A stretch of DNA of 64,000 nucleotides from Lama glama (Eukaryota): positions 60,140,001-60,204,000 of the forward strand of contig CM052823.1 of assembly GCA_028534125.1 (NCBI GenBank). Direction: 5' to 3'. Every line of letters begins with the position of its first letter. The first letter of the stretch is position 1. Below the pieces are notes generated by a model. That model saw nothing but the letters and a program-made list of their open reading frames with translations, did no database searches and was not told the origin of the DNA. The position numbers and the translations under genes were made by a program. This document shows positions 5,706 through 61,440 of this stretch, one piece after another.

Positions 5706-8700
5706 ATGGCATCTGATGACTTTGATATAGTGATTGAGGCCATGCTGGAGGCTCCTTATAAAAAAGAGGAGGTAATGTTCCCCACCTCACTCTTGGAATT
5801 GGGTTAGTAAGAAAAAACAGTTGTGGATCATCAGTTTCAACATTTTGTGAATTTTCTTTCCCTATTCGTTTATTATGTACAGTGGCTATTCGTAAAAGGC
5901 CTAGTCTTTTAGTAAGCTCTGCTGGAGATCCATGCTCAAGGGTGGTGCTTGCAGGGGGGGTCCCTAAAATGGCAGGGAGCAAATAATGTGGTGGGAGTGA
6001 GTGCTTTGCCTAGTTCTCAGTGACACAGTAGAAAGTCAGTGTATCTCAGACCTAACTCCTAAATAGATGTCAGTGGAACACATGTTGGGTAGCTAAAGTT
6101 TTGACTCTGAGCTCTTCTTTTTGGCTAGTTTCCTTCCTTCTCTATTCCCTTTGTTAGGCGATCCAGGTGCTCACAACTGTTTAAAAAATTGAGAGCATTG
6201 ATTTTATGAGCTTTCTTCCTTGTCCACTTTTGTTCTCTGTGCAATGGAATCTGTGTCATCTGGTACCTTATGGTCATTTTCCTGGCGAACCCCTCAGGAT
6301 GAGCAGCAAAGGAAAGAGATTAAAAAGGACAGCCCTAGCAACATCACCAACAGCACCAGCAGCACTGGCAGCAGTGGCAGTGGTACCAGTGGGAGCAGTG
6401 CCAGTGGGGAGGCAAGCAAGTGAGTGTGCGGGGAGGGAAATGGGTTGGCATCTTGGGGAAAGAAACAGCTGTGTCTGTTATAGAAACAGCCAGAACAGGG
6501 AGGTGGTTGCTCGACTTCTGACTTTTAGTAGTGGCACCACTGGGTCATGGGAATAATGGTGACTTGGTTTAATGATCTTCCAGTCTTCCCTTTCCAGTGT
6601 AGATTTGTGGACCGGTCCTAGCATCGATGTATTTCATTTGAATAAAATAGCAAGAGGACCTCTGATTTGGAAACACCAGCTTTTGCTTGGTTTGGTGGGG
6701 AATGACAGCATGTAGCGCTGTGTGTAAAGTGGTGTCGTGCCATTGATAGGGAACTACTGCCAGGTTGTCTTCTAGGTGGGGTGGTCTGTTACTGCTTTCT
6801 GTTTCATCCTGGCCTTTCTGTCATTCCTTTTCCTTATGAGAGATGCTGAAACCTCAGTAAGAAGTGTTTATACTCTCTTTCACAGAAAGAAGAGGAGCCG
6901 GAGCCATAGTAAAAGCAGGGATAGAAAACGCAGGTCAGTCATTCTAGGGACTGTTGGGTTTTGAGAATTATGAATGGAGAGATACCAGGGAAAGCTGTAC
7001 AGTAAAGGCCAGAAGAGGTTGGTTTGTTCTTTAAGAAACTTAATAGTCCTTTCTGGCAATAGTCATAGTCGAGACCGAGACCGGGATCGTCATCGGCGGA
7101 GAAGCAGTCGGAGCCGAAGTCGAGATCGGCAGCGTCATCACCGCAGCCGAAGCTGGGATCGTCGACATAGCAGTGAGTCACGAAGTCGAGACCGGCGTCG
7201 AGAGGATCGTGTGCGCTACAGGAGTCCATCGCTTGCAGCTGGGTATCACTTTTTGCTAATAAGATCACATTTGTGTCATAATCTGGGTAAAACAAACGCA
7301 CTGTGGTCCCTGCCTGCCTGAGGGTGCTTATAACCTGTTGTTGTGATAGGCAGGAGACCCAGTTCCTGGAGGGATGATGGTGAGAATTCACAAGAGAGAT
7401 AAGGTGCTGTAATCTGGTTTTCTCATGGCAGAAGCCCCAGCACTAGGCCAGTGTGAGTAAAGTTGGATAACGTGGTTTTCCATTTTGTTCTCTATTCCGT
7501 AGGCGCAGGTATGGACACAGTAAGAGTCCTCATTTCAGAGAGAAGAGCCCGGTCAGGTGAGTTGATTATGAGCACTCTTCTAGGGATTGTGAAATAGGAA
7601 TAAAAGGAGTTTGAACCAAACCACAAGAATGTGTAGTACTAGAGGGTAGCTGAAGTATGACGACCAAGTATTCGGAAGGAGTCTCAACAGATTCTACTTG
7701 CTCTTCAGGGAGCCTGTTGATAATCTGAGTCCTGAGGAGCGTGATGCCCGCACTGTGTTCTGTATGCAGTTAGCTGCCCGCATTCGGCCTCGAGACCTGG
7801 AGGACTTTTTCTCTGTAGTTGGCAAGGTAACCCTCTTCCCTCCTTAGTTTTCTCTGAGTAGCCTGTGTTCTATCCATCCCCCTTTATGCCCAACTCAGGA
7901 TTTCCTTTTTGCCCTGGATAGGTTCGCGATGTACGTATCATCTCAGATCGAAACTCACGTCGTTCTAAGGGCATTGCTTATGTGGAATTCTGTGAGATGC
8001 AGTCTGTGCCACTAGCCATTGGGTTGACGGGTCAGCGGCTGCTAGGAGTGCCTATCATTGTACAGGCCTCACAGGTGAGCAGGCTGTGAGCTGACATGAG
8101 ACGCTGGATTTGAAGGTGGTTGGTGTGGGACATGACCCATCATTTCCTCCCTCCTCAGGCTGAGAAAAACAGACTGGCAGCCATGGCCAACAACCTGCAA
8201 AAAGGCAGCGCTGGACCGATGCGTCTCTATGTGGGCTCCCTGCACTTCAATATCACCGAGGACATGCTCCGGGGAATCTTTGAGCCCTTTGGCAAAGTGA
8301 GTGGAAAGTGAAGGAAACCTCTGAAGGGAATTAGAAAAAGTGGGGAGGGTGGGTGTACCTCTTCATTCTGTCTGACCATGATTAACCCCCTACATGAGTC
8401 ATGATGGCCCAATTGGTCCATGCTAGGAAAGTTGGGCTCCATCTCGGTATTTATCCTGCTCAGGTGGCAGATTAGGCGCCATGAAATCAAACAGTGGGGT
8501 CCAGATTAAGAATAGTCAGAAAAAGTATTTGGGAAAAAGATGGCCTTTGTCTCTTTTTTTAAAAAAGATTTGGAGAGATGTATGGGTTGGCTGGAAAGTT
8601 AGAGGTACTTAGAACAGTCTGGGTAGGAAGGATCAAAGGTGTGTGTGAACTAAAAGATGACTGATAATTTCTTCTTATTCTGCAGATTGATAATATTGTC

Positions 8701-10937
8701 CTGATGAAGGACTCAGATACAGGCGGCTCTAAAGGTTATGGTTTCATTACGGTGAGTTTCTAGTCTTTTTTTAAATTTTAGTTTGGGTTGGGCCACTTGT
8801 CTGATTTTGCGGCTTAGCTTCNNNNNNNNNNNNNNNNNNNNNNNNNNNNNNNNNNNNNNNNNNNNNNNNNNNNNNNNNNNNNNNNNNNNNNNNNNNNNNN
8901 NNNNNNNNNNNNNNNNNNNNNNNNNNNNNNNNNNNNNNNNNNNNNNNNNNNNNCGGTATGGGGTGTCCAGGAGTTCAACCAGCTTCCCTGGAGCTACAAC
9001 TTGCTCTTTGGGTAATAGTAATGATTCCAGGCTGCAGCTAAGAGGTTGGGGGCATGAGGGAGGTTAGGTATGGGCTTTTATATACACACTTTATAGAATT
9101 GGTGTATTTTCATGGTGGGGTGGGAATTAAAAATTACGTATTTCCCTCTGAGGCTACCCAGTTTGAAGCAGTTTCTCCATTGAGAAATACCTTTTTTATT
9201 TAAATACCACTATGGGGAGAATAGTGTGGCCACCTGATAGTGGGCATGTCTCACCTTTTCCTGACACTCTAACAAAATTGTTTCCAATTCCCATAACTGG
9301 TTCTTCCAGCCTCATGTGACTCCAGGCTGAGGACTGGCTGCCAGACACAAAGTCTGATAGGAGCCAATATTTTCTGGGCTCAATCCAGGCAGCATACACC
9401 CCCACAGTTGCCTGCAGGGCAGAGGGGAGGTAGGTTGTGTTCTACCGTGAGGGTTGCTCATCTTAGAAGTATCCAGTAAAGGCAGGCCACTTACACCACC
9501 TGCCTAGTAACTGTCAGCACCACGTGCCAGGCCCTAGGGCAGGAAATACCAGAGTAAATAAAGCCAGCTGTGGTGTTCATGGTGGCAAGTACCTTTTCTA
9601 GCTCTCCATGTGACTCAGATGCGGAAAGGCTTCTGAGGGCCTTTTGCCCTTGTGTTGCTGCCTTTTAGGTCAACACCCTTGACACTTAAACAGCAGACTG
9701 GGAAGCATCTTTATGCCAAGCTGCTGCTGGGTGCTGCTTATGAAAGGAGCTAGAGAGTAGAGGCCCTGTGGTCAGCACATCAGAGTCAGCAGCACTGGGG
9801 TGGGGTGGGGGAGGAGTCTTGTGCTCTCAATACCAGGGTGTGCGCTGTCCTAAGGCTGGGCTCTGGAGTTCCATGTTCCTAGTTCTTGACTGAGAACTGA
9901 GACTTGCTGGTCCTGAGGGCTGAAGTAAAACGCTCAGGAGCCTTGGATCTCAGCCTGTCTTTCTTCCATTTGATAACACCCATTTGTGAAACAGATGTCA
10001 GGCTAGGCTCCCTACGGATGATAGACTTTTTGCATTGTTAGGTTCCCAGTGGAGCTGGAAGATTGAAAAGAGATCGCTATTGAGTCAGTTGGAAAGGTCC
10101 TGTTCAGAGAACCATTTTGGGAGATGGGGATCTTAGGCCACATTCCCTGGAAAAGAAAAGTTTGAGCCACAGTGAGCATGCAATTTTCCTGGGGTAATAG
10201 GACTAGGGAGTGTTAGTGGGGCTTGGAGAGCACATCTGTGGCCAGGAGGTATGTGATGTGACCTGGGTTTCTTGTAGTTCTCTGACTCTGAGTGTGCCCA
10301 GCGGGCCCTGGAACAGTTGAATGGCTTTNNNNNNNNNNNNNNNNNNNNNNNNNNNNNNNNNNNNNNNNNNNNNNNNNNNNNNNNNNNNNNNNNNNNNNNN
10401 NNNNNNNNNNNNNNNNNNNNNNNNNNNNNNNNNNNNNNNNNNNNNNNNNNNNNNNNNNNNAAATTGGCAGAAGGTAGGATTTCTCTGCAGAGTGAAGAAC
10501 ACAGGATTGAACTTTACATCAAGGGTTGGGATTTATCCCCACCTTTTCTTTCTCTTTAGGGTCTGGAATCCAGCTGCCAACCACGGCGGCTGCTGCTGCC
10601 GCTGCCGCCCAAGCTGCTGCCTTGCAACTGAATGGAGCAGTTCCTCTGGGGGCCCTGAACCCAGCAGCTCTGACTGGTCGACTTGCACTTGGGAAAGGGG
10701 GAGAAGAGTGGGGCCTGGAGGGCAGGAATGCCCTGTGCTCACTAACTCCTCTCTTTGTTTCAGCTCTGAGTCCAGCCCTGAACCTCGCCTCCCAAGCAAT
10801 TGCCTCCCAGTGCTTCCAGCTTTCCAGCCTCTTTACTCCCCAAACCATGTGAGTCTCAGGGCCCAGTTCTTTTCGGTGTTTCTAGTTGTTTTCTTTCCTT
10901 CGGATTCCTGTTGACGTCTTCTCACCACCACAGGTAA
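5706..10937 (+). CDS. RBM23: RNA-binding motif protein 23 (CAPER-beta; RS domain + 2 RRMs), 448 aa
   Basis: Coding exons 5706-5771, 6298-6419, 6886-6933, 7063-7242, 7503-7556, 7709-7826, 7922-8074, 8159-8296, 8686-8751, 10278-10473 (partly N), 10560-10676, 10764-10848, 10934-10937. All GT-AG, 1347 nt in frame. MASDDFDIVIEAMLEAPYKKEE...RS repeats...RTVFCMQLAARIRPRDLEDFF...RLYVGSLHFNITEDMLRGIFEPFGK...QCFQLSSLFTPQTM*. Confidence 0.97.
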
Positions 10938-11794
10938 AATCAGTGGCACAGGCCTCACTGTGCTCTTGGTCCTGCCACTCCCTTCTCCACGTCTTTCATG
11001 GCCCCTTCACTGTTTTATGGACCAAGCCATCCTGAGGGCATGAACATTGATGGCGGGGGAACTGGGGCCCCCCCTTAGACACCAAGAACAGCTCCTGGCC
11101 ACGGCCCCACTGGGAAGGGACTCTGCCGAGCAAAGCTGCTGGTCGAAGAGAACAGCATCTGCACTGGCGTTGGCCATCTGTTTCTCTGTGTACGTCGTCT
11201 CCCGGGATGACCTTTAATGCCCTTTCCTACCACCTCTCGGTGATTCCTCGATTCCTCCCCCATTGGGAAGGCTATAGGGCATTAACCGAAGGAACACTGC
11301 TCTCCTCCTATACCTTTACCCTACAATCTGTCAGGGGAAACCCTGAAGACCTCTGGTCCGCGAGGACTTTGGAGTTTGAGGGGGCGAACCTTGAAGGTGC
11401 TGGCTTGCTGCTACAAGGACCCTGGAAGCTAGCACGGACACGTGCATGGGGATGCCTGCCTTAGACCTCGGGGCCACAGTTAACTGCTGGGGGCTCAGCA
11501 TCCTCCTGGGAGGTGTGGGAGTGATCTGCCCTGCCAGCTGTTTTGAATGTCTTCAGGGCATTCGGGTGTTTAGTGGAAGGTGCGGTACCTTTCCAGTATC
11601 TTCCATCTTCCTTTGTATAGTTGTCCTTCCTTTGGCCCAGGGTTGGGAGGATAGAGGGGAGGCTGTGTCTCTCCACCTCTTCCATGTGCCTCTGTAGACT
11701 GGGCTCAACCCCAGCTGTTAAAGTTGCTCCTGTTCCCTAGCTGGGCACACGTGAGCCCGTCTCACTGGATTTTATACTCTAGCGTCTGTGTACA

Positions 11795-11846
11795 TAAATT
11801 ATATATATGTATATGTATATGTATATATGTATATATATGTATACAT
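11795..11846 (+). repeat. (TA)n/(TATATG)n low-complexity microsatellite in RBM23 3' UTR
   Basis: atatatatgtatatgtatatgtatatatgtatatatatgtatacata. Confidence 0.9.
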
Positions 11847-12172
11847 AAAAACTTTGTACAGAAAACAGGCCCCACTGTTGTGGTGGCTGCTTCCCATGTG
11901 GTCTCAGTCCGTTGGGTGTGTCTGTCTGATGTTAACTTCTCATGAGCCAAAACCATGAGTGGTTCTAGGAATATAAAACATTTGTAATGCCACTGAGTTT
12001 TCTTTCCTTTATTTTATTTTATCTAACCACCTTTAGAAAGAAAAACAGATAAAACACACTCACCTTATCTGTATCTGCTATTCTCCCATGGTTTTGACTA
12101 TCTCCAGACCTACCTGCCCATTGGACAGATGTCTGGGTTCTATCTCTGTGGCTGGGGACAGATCTTGTCTTT

Positions 12173-36724: not shown

Positions 36725-36870
36725 GTGGGAGGTTATAGCTTAGTGGTAGAGTGTGTGCTTAGTTAGCATGCATGAGGTCCTGGGTTCAATCCTCAGTACC
36801 TCCATTAAAATAAATAAATAAGCCTTAACACCCCCCCAAAAAAAGTTAAAAAATTAAAACTTAAAAAAGA
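36725..36870 (+). mobile_element. Camelid tRNA-derived SINE (Vic-1-like)
   Basis: gggaggttatagcttagtggtagag (A box)...ctgggttcaatcctcagtacctccattaaaataaata (B box, tail). Degenerate TSD aaatgacagtat / aaaagacaatat. Confidence 0.85.
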
Positions 36871-38202: not shown

Positions 38203-38289
38203 TTTATTTTTAATGGAGGTACTGGGGATTGAACCCAGAACCTTGTACATGCTAAGCAGGCACTCTACCTCTGAGCTATACCCTCCCGA
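38203..38289 (-). mobile_element. Camelid tRNA-derived SINE (Vic-1-like) inserted into a MIR
   Basis: taatggaggtactggggattgaaccc...ctgagctataccctccc. TSD tagtcccacttta (38190) / tagccccgcttta (38290). Confidence 0.85.
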
Positions 38290-56991: not shown

Positions 56992-59944
56992 TTACTGACT
57001 TGGTTGTGGCTTCTGCAGTAGAGCCCCTTTCGGTTTAAGAGCATTCTTCTGCTTCCTTTCTTCTTCCTGCAACTTCTCCTGCTGCCTGCGCTGCCATGCC
57101 TGTAATCCAGCATCCATTTCCTGTGACAGCAGTACAACTCGTCTCTGAAACAGACAGGAAAACAGTGTGGATAACATCTGGGGCTTGGGCGCTGCACCAT
57201 ATATCCTTTCATTCACAGATCAAAGCCAGAGGTTTCAGCTGGAAAATGACACTGTTGACTGGGGAAGAGGTGGGACCAGGTCCGGGGCTAGGAAGCGGGA
57301 GGAAGGCAGCAAAATGTGTGTCTACTCCTGGTTCCTGCCCTAGGAGTGCCACGCTCTATCCTCCCTTCTCACAGGACTGTTAAAACCTTTGCCTGGGAGC
57401 GAGGGGTATGCATTAGTTCAGGTGCCAACATAGCTCAAGACAAATTACGATTTAATTTTCTCCCCCTAATTATACACAGGTTGCCCTGGGTGAGGCTCTA
57501 GCCACTCACTGCAAACTTTTCCCTTTGGGCTTTCCTTCGAAGCTGGCCTTTCATTGGAGGAGCGGGGCGGCCATCTGCACATAGAAATGAGAGAAAAGGC
57601 AAGTGTTAGAGAGGGCCTGCAGTGTCCTGGGAAAGCGGCTTCCATTTCACACTTACTGTAGCTTAATTTAGAATACTTCCCTCATCTTCAAAGGTGAGGT
57701 ATGCCAGAACCACCAAGAATAAGCCCCTAGGTATGTTCCTACTCTATTTTACTTGTCCCTCATTAGCCCGGAATTCCAGGTCCTTTGCAATGCTGAATCG
57801 CCTGTATTATCTTCAGAAACCCTCCACTCAAGCAATCTGATTACTGTTCTGCTCACCAGTAAGCCCTTGCTAAATTCCATCTCACTCCATAATGAAACAC
57901 CCTCTTTTCCTTTCCTTCCAGCCAAATTCTCATCCTTAGGCCCACCTCAAGGCCTGTCCCAGAAATTCTTCTCTAACCTCTTAACTGTCAGTTCTCTTTT
58001 CTGAAAGAAGCACATATCCATCATTTACTATTCGTCTATTTGCTTTGGGACATTTATTGTACTGTTGGTTGTTTTTAGCCATATTTAGCCACCTCAAATC
58101 CTTCTGGAAAGGGGCAGAGCACTGAATTATTATTTTATTTTTAAAAATGTCCATGCTTTGTTTTTCCAGCTAGACTTTAAGTTCTTTGGGATCAGGGACT
58201 GTATCCCTTGCTTTCACTGTTGTGCAGTGTAGACACATAACAAAAATTCAATAAATATCTGCTGACTAGCTGAAAAGATGCAGTACCTGACCTAAAGTAG
58301 TTTATAATGGAGACAAAAAGAACACTTACTTTCTACAAAGAAAGAAAAAAACCCCCAAAAAACAAAAAAACAAAAAAAAGAGGGAAAACTCTGCCCCAAA
58401 TTTTGAAAGCAAGACAAAATAAGATTACTTATCAGGAAAGGGAACCAATACTGTGTGTATCAGGGGCTTTACACTGGTCATTTCATTTTATCCTTACAAG
58501 AACCAAACAAGATAGGTATTGTTCTTTTACAAATGTGGAAACTAAGAGATACAATTAAGGAACTTGTCCAAGACCACAAAGTTAGCAAGTAGGGAAGCCT
58601 AGATTAAGAATCAATTCCAGAGTCTTTCCACTATTTCTGTACTACTTCAAGGAGAATCAAGGCTTCCTACAGGAAGTAACAAGTAGAAAAAAATCTTCAC
58701 CATCCTCCTCAGCCACCAAGTATCTGATTAAGCAGGGTCATACTCATAGAATCTAATACTGGGGGAGGTATAGATCAATGGCAGAGTGCACGCCTAGCAT
58801 GTATGAGGTCCTGGGTTCAATCCCCAGTATCTCCATTAAATAAATAAACAAACAAATAAATAATGTAACGCACCCCCCACCCCACCCCGGCAAAGAAAGA
58901 ATCCAACATTCAGGTCTCTGTGTTGTTGAGGGTGGCTTGGACTCTGCTCAATTCTAGTCTTGGCTTTGCCATTACCTAGCTGTGTGCTCCCAGGCAATTC
59001 ACTTCTGTAGGCCTCAATTTTCCCATCTGTGAACCCGAGTCCCATTGTTGTGAGGCGTGGCTTCAAGTTTTCTAATATCTTTCCTTTCTAGGGGGAACAT
59101 TTTCTGTTTTTTTCCCCCTTTTTTCTTTTTTTTTAAAGTAGAGGAAGAGACTTTTCTGAAGGGAGGCCGCCATCCTCAGTACTCACTCTTCTATGCCTCT
59201 CTCTGAGACGCTCATTTAGGCAGCCTTTCGAAGAGCTCTCCCTGCGCTTAGCAACAAAATCTCAACGATGTACTTACTTACCATAAAGTAGGGTGGTTCT
59301 CCCTAACTTAAAAAAACCCCAACGTCTCTCTTCGAGAAACGTAAAGTCTTGTCCCTCCCAGGACACCCCAAATGAGGATTATCTTCTGCGTATCCCCACA
59401 AGCCAAGAAGATCCTGTCTAGCTTTACTTTCCATAGGCGTAGTTTAATTTACAAAATAAACAACAGGATTTCTTCCTCCCAACTCCAAATATACAGTTCA
59501 ACACGTTGTCCACTCAGACACACCCCCACCATGACACCATCCCCCTACTCCGTCCAGGGGCGTTCCCTCTAGGTGAAAATCTCCGAAGTTAACTGTCAGA
59601 TCAGCGCTCACCCGCGTAAGACCAGTCTGGGAGTTCCGTAAGGGGCCCGTAGCCGGAGGGGTTGGCGGCAAGGCCCTGCCTGGACGGAGAAAAAGTCTGG
59701 TGAGGATTCAGCCCAGCTTCTGACCACCCAAATCCCCCCAGACCGGCACTCACTGGAGTCGCCACTGGCCGCCAGCCCGAGCCGCGGCGCCGCAATGCAG
59801 CCTCCGAACTCCTGCTGCGAAAACAGGGCAGAGTTGGGAAAGAGGCCGTGCCGCCAGCTCAGGGGTCCCGGGCGAGCCCCCCACGAGCTCCCTACGCCGA
59901 CCCTACACCCACTTACCGGAGAGGAATATACCCAAAGCTTCCAT
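56992..59944 (-). CDS. MRPL52: Mitochondrial ribosomal protein L52 (mL52), 124 aa
   Basis: Exons 59944-59917, 59814-59754, 59679-59612, 57574-57510, 57144-56992; 375 nt in frame. [17 protein letters not shown]...[37 protein letters not shown]...[17 protein letters not shown]...PSQ*. Confidence 0.95.
58761..58897 (+). mobile_element. Camelid tRNA-derived SINE (Vic-1-like) in MRPL52 intron 3
   Basis: gggggaggtatagatcaatggcagag...ctgggttcaatccccagtatctccattaaataaa. TSD agaatctaatact / agaatccaacatt. Confidence 0.85.
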
Positions 59945-61299: not shown

Positions 61300-61440
61300 T
61301 TTTAATTTTTTTCAGTTTTTTGGGGGGGAGGGGAGGTAGTTTTATTTATTTATTTGTTTATGAGCCTGTACTGGGGATTGAACCCAGGACCCCGTGCATG
61401 CTAAACATGCGCTCTACTACTTGAGCTATACCCTCGCCCC
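61300..61440 (-). mobile_element. Camelid tRNA-derived SINE (Vic-1-like)
   Basis: gtactggggattgaacccaggac...ttgagctataccctc with a tttatttat tail. Confidence 0.85.

Follow-up and report, generated by a model that had tools for sequence, protein, structure and literature searches.

A stop-introducing alternative 3' splice site within RBM23 intron 10, a candidate for unproductive splicing

Unproductive-splicing feedback is documented for RBM39, the paralogue of RBM23, where exon 2b is subject to an unproductive 3' splice-site choice and a local stem-loop affects splicing (PMC10477243). In another splicing-factor gene, SNRNP70 (U1-70K), an acceptor in the middle of intron 7 adds a stop while the rest of the intron stays unspliced, and the product is cleared by NMD (PMC3798272). 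The third system lies in RBM23 itself: at human chr14:22904172-22904260, splicing links the exon 10 donor with an acceptor 89 nt further along, giving a product that reads EL... (Table S3 of PMC8091538). This junction was seen only in pre-translation EJC libraries, with 1, 9, and 4 reads, its six RNA-seq columns showing 0, and it is filed under conserved unannotated junctions (PMC8091538). The acceptor described here, at position 9669, resembles all three. It is a mid-intron, stop-adding site in a splicing-factor gene as in SNRNP70, would offer an unproductive 3' splice-site choice as in RBM39, and is a stop-giving acceptor served by the same donor and located in the same intron as the human junction.

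The full-text literature searches listed no paper on unproductive-splicing feedback for RBM23 and no account of its intron 10; large supplements or the genome annotation may list the human site. Where RBM23 splicing is described in PMC6093180, PMC4402522, PMC12324277, and PMC8980049, the exons described in the available parts of these sources are upstream ones or go unnamed. The supplement of PMC8980049 holds 8 RBM23 rows (7 splicing events plus GO rows), with all events upstream and none in intron 10. There were no intron 10 matches in the readable supplementary files of PMC10477243, none in the smaller supplementary files of PMC8052449 (its large ones may hold the full conserved-pairing list), and no information on this intron in the supplements of PMC8233366 other than its splicing tables. 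The accessible portions of PMC13561874 and PMC12443969 added nothing on RBM23 intron 10.

The alternative acceptor and its gene setting

RBM23 is encoded on the + strand of the window, that is, the whole 64,000-nucleotide stretch of Lama glama DNA that was analyzed, and one of its upstream exons matches RBM23 proteins with 94-100% identity. Intron 10 spans 8752-10277. The exon model agrees with the original prediction in ending exon 10 at 8751 in phase 0, and the main features of this region are as follows.

8686..8751, + strand: RBM23 exon 10, part of RRM2, ending ...GYGFIT, with the phase-0 donor ACG/gtgagt; placed by homologous proteins
9557..9562, + strand: AATAAA, located 5' of 9669 and 3' of the 9310 and 9491 sites
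9640..9668, + strand: alternative acceptor, comprising the pyrimidine tract and the AG, with the top score of 115 visible AGs and a 29-nt AG-free zone
9669..9689, + strand: alternative exon start encoding VNTLDT, with the stop at 9687-9689; tail identical in bowhead whale model P0133
10246..10254, + strand: strong donor-like GAG/gtatgt, 29 nt before the exon 11 acceptor, with a putative role as a decoy
10255..10277, + strand: productive exon 11 acceptor, second weakest among 13 acceptors scored in RBM23

The AG of the alternative acceptor is present at 9667-9668, and translation of the join confirmed that exon 10 spliced to 9669 reads VNTLDT followed by a stop. With a rough frequency matrix, 9669 scores 3.93, the highest value among the visible AGs of intron 10 and within the range of the real acceptors of RBM23, compared with -1.35 for the exon 11 acceptor. 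No GT donor scoring above 1.1 was found from 9669 to 10249, which bears out the earlier remark that a strong downstream donor is absent. We regard 9669 as a credible alternative 3' splice site that introduces a stop; in its most plausible mode of use, the rest of intron 10 is retained. With such retention assumed, the stop lies 589 nt 5' of exon 11 and is followed by later junctions. Nonsense-mediated decay follows the 50-55 nt rule, and a credible splice site that gives a premature stop at more than this distance from a later junction is what AS-NMD calls for. Decay of the 9669 transcript would therefore be expected. The word content of 9450-9900 (45 sampled) was 0.22 in 14 RNA-type runs of other organisms and 0.64-0.71 in 6 runs of a closer organism, values that say nothing on junction use.

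Several other observations were made in this region. The donor-like site at 10246-10254 lies too near the weak exon 11 acceptor to pair with it and may act as a decoy for it. Within exon 10, RRM2 reads TGGSKG, with Gly in place of Arg just 5' of the RNP1 motif; this variant is shared only with three alpaca proteins among 327 records, of which 319 carry Arg and three, all from chimpanzee, carry His. Intron 10 holds two copies of the 10-mer CATGTGACTC, at 9313 and 9607, the only ones in the window. A repeat relation between these two copies was discarded, given that the broader resemblance does not reach significance (p about 0.16). Elsewhere in the window there are four similar tRNA-like matches (36729-36804, 38214-38285, 58764-58835, and 61368-61431), which are probably copies of a tRNA-derived SINE.

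Folding of the segment around the acceptor

The original prediction placed the acceptor inside a four-way junction, in which a closing stem encloses three hairpins (A, B, and C) and hairpin B buries the AG. All eight stem arms lie where they had been placed and match as perfect reverse complements. When isolated, the 164-mer folds at -59.4 kcal/mol with a z of -2.36, a stability equaled by 4 of 200 shuffles. In this isolated piece, the mean pair probabilities are 1.0 for the closing stem, 0.97 for hairpin B, and 0.80 for hairpin C. Hairpin A reaches only 0.01 and the inner stem drawn for hairpin C 0.12; the junction as drawn is therefore not the predicted fold, and forcing all of its helices gives -54.5 versus -59.4 kcal/mol. 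The helices that form in the isolated piece are the following.

9595-9605 with 9746-9756, + strand: closing stem, context-dependent and at chance level
9652..9676, + strand: hairpin B, over the AG, with a hairpin at 9669-9673/9679-9683 and pairing to 9787-9795 as rivals
9691..9726, + strand: hairpin C, the sole helix to survive in most contexts (0.52-0.97), 3' of the stop

The closing stem falls to 0.17 when 9550-9800 is folded and to at most 0.03 in four larger contexts, and hairpin B falls to 0.20 in 9550-9800 and ranges from 0.02 to 0.25 across contexts. Both are mostly lost once about 45 downstream bases are included. Forcing the closing stem with B and C carries a penalty of only 1.3-2.9 kcal/mol, which indicates that this fold is possible, although not preferred.

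Since the boundaries of the element were chosen at a stem, the proper control is provided by stem-bounded windows of shuffled intron. When the visible part of intron 10 was dinucleotide-shuffled 2000 times, 29% of the shuffles contained a closing stem of this kind. The 218 stem-bounded windows obtained from shuffled introns have a mean z of -2.06, and 39% of them reach -2.36. In a blind scan of the gene region, 6 of 265 windows reach this value. The favorable folding energy thus holds for the isolated piece and becomes ordinary against stem-bounded controls: the four-way structure is at chance level. Burial of the AG fared similarly. The acceptor does lie in a paired region, but its -20..+2 segment is 20% unpaired, inside the 17-62% found for 10 real RBM23 acceptors. 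A structure-gated switch calls for a fold stabler than chance and robust in its context, and the fold found here is neither. Gating of 9669 by a four-way junction is thus left unsupported by the pair probabilities, the stem-bounded shuffles, and the context tests. The lowest folding z of the scanned region (-2.3 to -4.1) belongs to 11670-11956, in or near the RBM23 3' UTR, and is stronger than that of the flagged element.

The proposal that the element is an intronic structured ncRNA, snoRNA-like or a U1/U11-like cloverleaf released from the intron, could draw on its 11-12 bp terminal stem enclosing about 160 nt and on the z of the isolated piece. Against this, no Rfam family matched at gathering score (four weak matches, with E of 2.6-9.5, fell far under threshold), the segment is single-copy in its own genome, where no retrocopy carries it, the z is at chance level, and canonical C/D or H/ACA boxes are absent by inspection. 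This inspection and the Rfam search also led us to drop box C/D, H/ACA, K-turn, and U1/U11 mimicry, and we regard an ncRNA as highly improbable. No homologous DNA for a covariation comparison was found in the animal's own genome or in a metagenome pattern scan. The single match from that scan does not align along its length, marking it as a chance hit in unrelated sequence.

A reduced form of the gate would do without the junction. Hairpin B would form over the AG co-transcriptionally, in competition with the hairpin at 9669-9683, and binding of a stem-loop through the RRM1 of RBM23 or RBM39 would tip the balance. In short prefixes resembling nascent RNA, with starts at 9550 or 9594 and ends at 9680-9690, hairpin B does reach 0.92-0.99. 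It drops to 0.22-0.80, however, when the prefix begins upstream of these starts, and to 0-0.23 when the 3' flank extends to 9800 or further. Both competing hairpins draw on bases of the segment matched in the whale, and the low cost of forcing the closing stem with B and C is compatible with such a switch; the chance-level z and an AG burial resembling that of real acceptors argue against it. In favor, stem-loops are recognized by RRM1 of RBM39, and the RBM39 poison exon has its donor concealed by a stem-loop (PMC10477243). Against, RBM23 is described as having no structural preference in vitro (bioRxiv 10.1101/201996). Strict RBM39 RRM2 motifs occur at 9004 and 10026, away from the 9669 acceptor, which has none. 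On balance this reduced gate appears unlikely.

Truncated RBM23 tails in other mammals

To the 450 proteins collected, a motif filter was applied that kept 336 as RBM23-like, and the exon 10 motif was present in 328. No odd tail after GYGFIT appeared among the first 120 homologues. The truncated forms surfaced through a search restricted to 123-394 residues, together with cluster listings, and the searches favored proteins that reach exon 10. In 21 of the 328 records the continuation after exon 10 is noncanonical. Stop tails from new acceptors account for 11 of these, intron retention for 6, and exon 11 skipping for 2; the last 2 are nonmammalian and were set aside. The 11 stop tails comprise four of ELS type, four reading LHPPPLGTV, two reading PHVTPG, and one reading VNTLDT. 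At three upstream junctions (308, 321, and 327 records) only retention-type or cut-off tails were seen, a comparison to be read in light of the short upstream introns, the much longer intron 10, and searches that favored exon 10. The protein records and the human junction row support the view that intron 10 gives rise to truncated isoforms across mammals.

The VNTLDT tail comes from bowhead whale model bmy_13937T0 (P0133), which ends in GFIT-VNTLDT, exactly the predicted tail. Bowhead gene models were produced with MAKER2, which blends ab initio, homology, and RNA evidence (PMC4536333), so this record speaks for conserved sequence and not for a junction. The tail is present in 1 of the 328 records, and of the 833 matches to a tail-targeted search, the 120 listed include no further case. 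Neutral retention of the AG, the six residues, and the stop has an estimated probability of 0.015-0.076 at assumed distances of 0.25-0.15. The match to one whale is therefore suggestive only as a sign of conservation.

Two of the other tail types can be placed in the window.

9308..9429, + strand: second stop-giving acceptor, PHVTPG-stop, with AG at 9308-9309; exact match to horse P0269 and pig-like P0280
9491..9515, + strand: probable decayed counterpart of the LHPPPLGTV acceptor, without a preceding AG

The PHVTPG-stop is exact in the window, and none of 100 shuffles came within 2 edits of it. Judging from the donor score, the 9310 acceptor combined with a donor at 9430 would define a 120-nt poison cassette. 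The LHPPPLGTV tail, found in horse, donkey, and two sloth isoforms, has a best fit in the window of 4 edits, which 3 of 100 shuffles equal. Its acceptor has probably been lost in this lineage, and a site left without an AG suggests that intron 10 acceptors turn over. The ELS-type tails, from gray whale and three other records, fit the human +89 junction; at the corresponding position, the window has N.

Splicing noise is the main rival explanation of these tails: 9669 and the other AGs would be cryptic sites used at a low rate because the exon 11 acceptor is weak and occasionally recorded by annotation pipelines, with no regulation involved. This would explain why 9669 appears in one record only and why the sites differ between species, and it agrees with a neutral retention of up to 0.076 and with the few reads for the human junction (PMC8091538). 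RBM23 is also absent from the 23,090 human NMD events in the readable supplements of PMC7347940, and in the supplement of a second catalogue it is entered only as a paralogue, not as an event (PMC10123112). Noise accounts less readily for the recurrence across distant mammals of PHVTPG and its stop in horse, the pig-like record, and the window, for that of LHPPPLGTV in horse, donkey, and sloth, and for the classification of the +89 junction as conserved (PMC8091538). We consider noise possible, at distinctly less than even chances.

Some of these acceptors could instead define alternative last exons, yielding a stable short protein with RRM1 and a broken RRM2. The truncated forms of horse, donkey, sloth, and gray whale are indeed filed as proteins, and the AATAAA at 9557 lies 3' of the 9310 and 9491 sites. 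A hexamer scan, however, revealed neither AATAAA nor ATTAAA between 9669 and exon 11, and the human +89 junction has no RNA-seq reads (PMC8091538), making this outcome very unlikely.

Related variation was observed in the paralogue and at later junctions of RBM23. In the RBM39 records P0153, P0156, and P0159, the tail following GFIT is likewise truncated at this junction, hinting that the intron at this place may be splicing-labile in both genes. Intron 12 (87 nt, 10677-10763) has the weak donor CTG/gtcgac, and records from camel, alpaca, marmot, and human keep this intron in frame, adding about 29 residues; retention-type tails at this intron occur in 10 of 281 records. At the exon 11/12 junction (approximately 10460-10560), carnivore isoforms and the horse X3 isoform are without about 12 linker residues, which points to an alternative donor within exon 11.

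A possible unproductive-splicing brake and known systems

The acceptor at 9669 is real and gives a stop, and intron 10 is rich in sites of this kind. The reading we favor, with our confidence evenly balanced, is that intron 10 acts as an unproductive-splicing brake on RBM23 and that 9669 is one, probably minor, of several spare acceptors. In this mechanism, the strong exon 10 donor could be spliced either to the weak exon 11 acceptor or to one of several AGs upstream of it; a strong donor facing a weak acceptor is what would let these AGs compete. Each spare acceptor would put a stop inside RRM2 and send some RBM23 messages to decay. Use of 9669 in this animal would keep the rest of intron 10, leaving three junctions downstream of a stop that lies 589 nt before exon 11. 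Local hairpins may dampen 9669, and no fixed four-way junction is required. On this evidence, the intron is a candidate for regulated AS-NMD, and feedback by RBM23 would be a further step.

If this brake operates, competing stop-giving acceptors in one intron provide a concrete and testable control point for RBM23. The surprise is modest, since this kind of mechanism is common, and the exotic part, the four-way junction, failed its controls. RBM23 is reportedly degraded by the same anticancer sulfonamides as RBM39. A bolder extension, which we hold to be improbable, would see a placental-wide array of poison acceptors in which the strongest, 9669, is opened or shut by two competing hairpins that form co-transcriptionally and are sensed by the stem-loop-binding RRM1 of RBM23 or RBM39, giving a sulfonamide-responsive cross-regulation of the paralogues. 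Such cross-regulation, equally improbable, would be distinct from the RBM39 exon 2b loop.

The comparison with the known systems defines what would be particular to RBM23. SNRNP70 has a shown regulator (U1C), a required nearby donor cluster, and conservation to zebrafish (PMC3798272). For RBM23, in contrast, the regulator is only hypothetical, the nearest 580 nt contain no strong donor, the intron holds several acceptors, and decay, established for the SNRNP70 product, would be expected from the position of the stop. RBM39 exon 2b is a cassette near the 5' end of its gene, in which CUCUUUG adjoins the AG and a stem covers the donor (PMC10477243), whereas the RBM23 site lies in the RRM2 intron and its closest comparable motif, CCUUUUG, stops 20 nt short of the AG. 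Finally, the human junction uses the acceptor at +89 (PMC8091538), while 9669 corresponds to +917 and is a different acceptor of the same intron.
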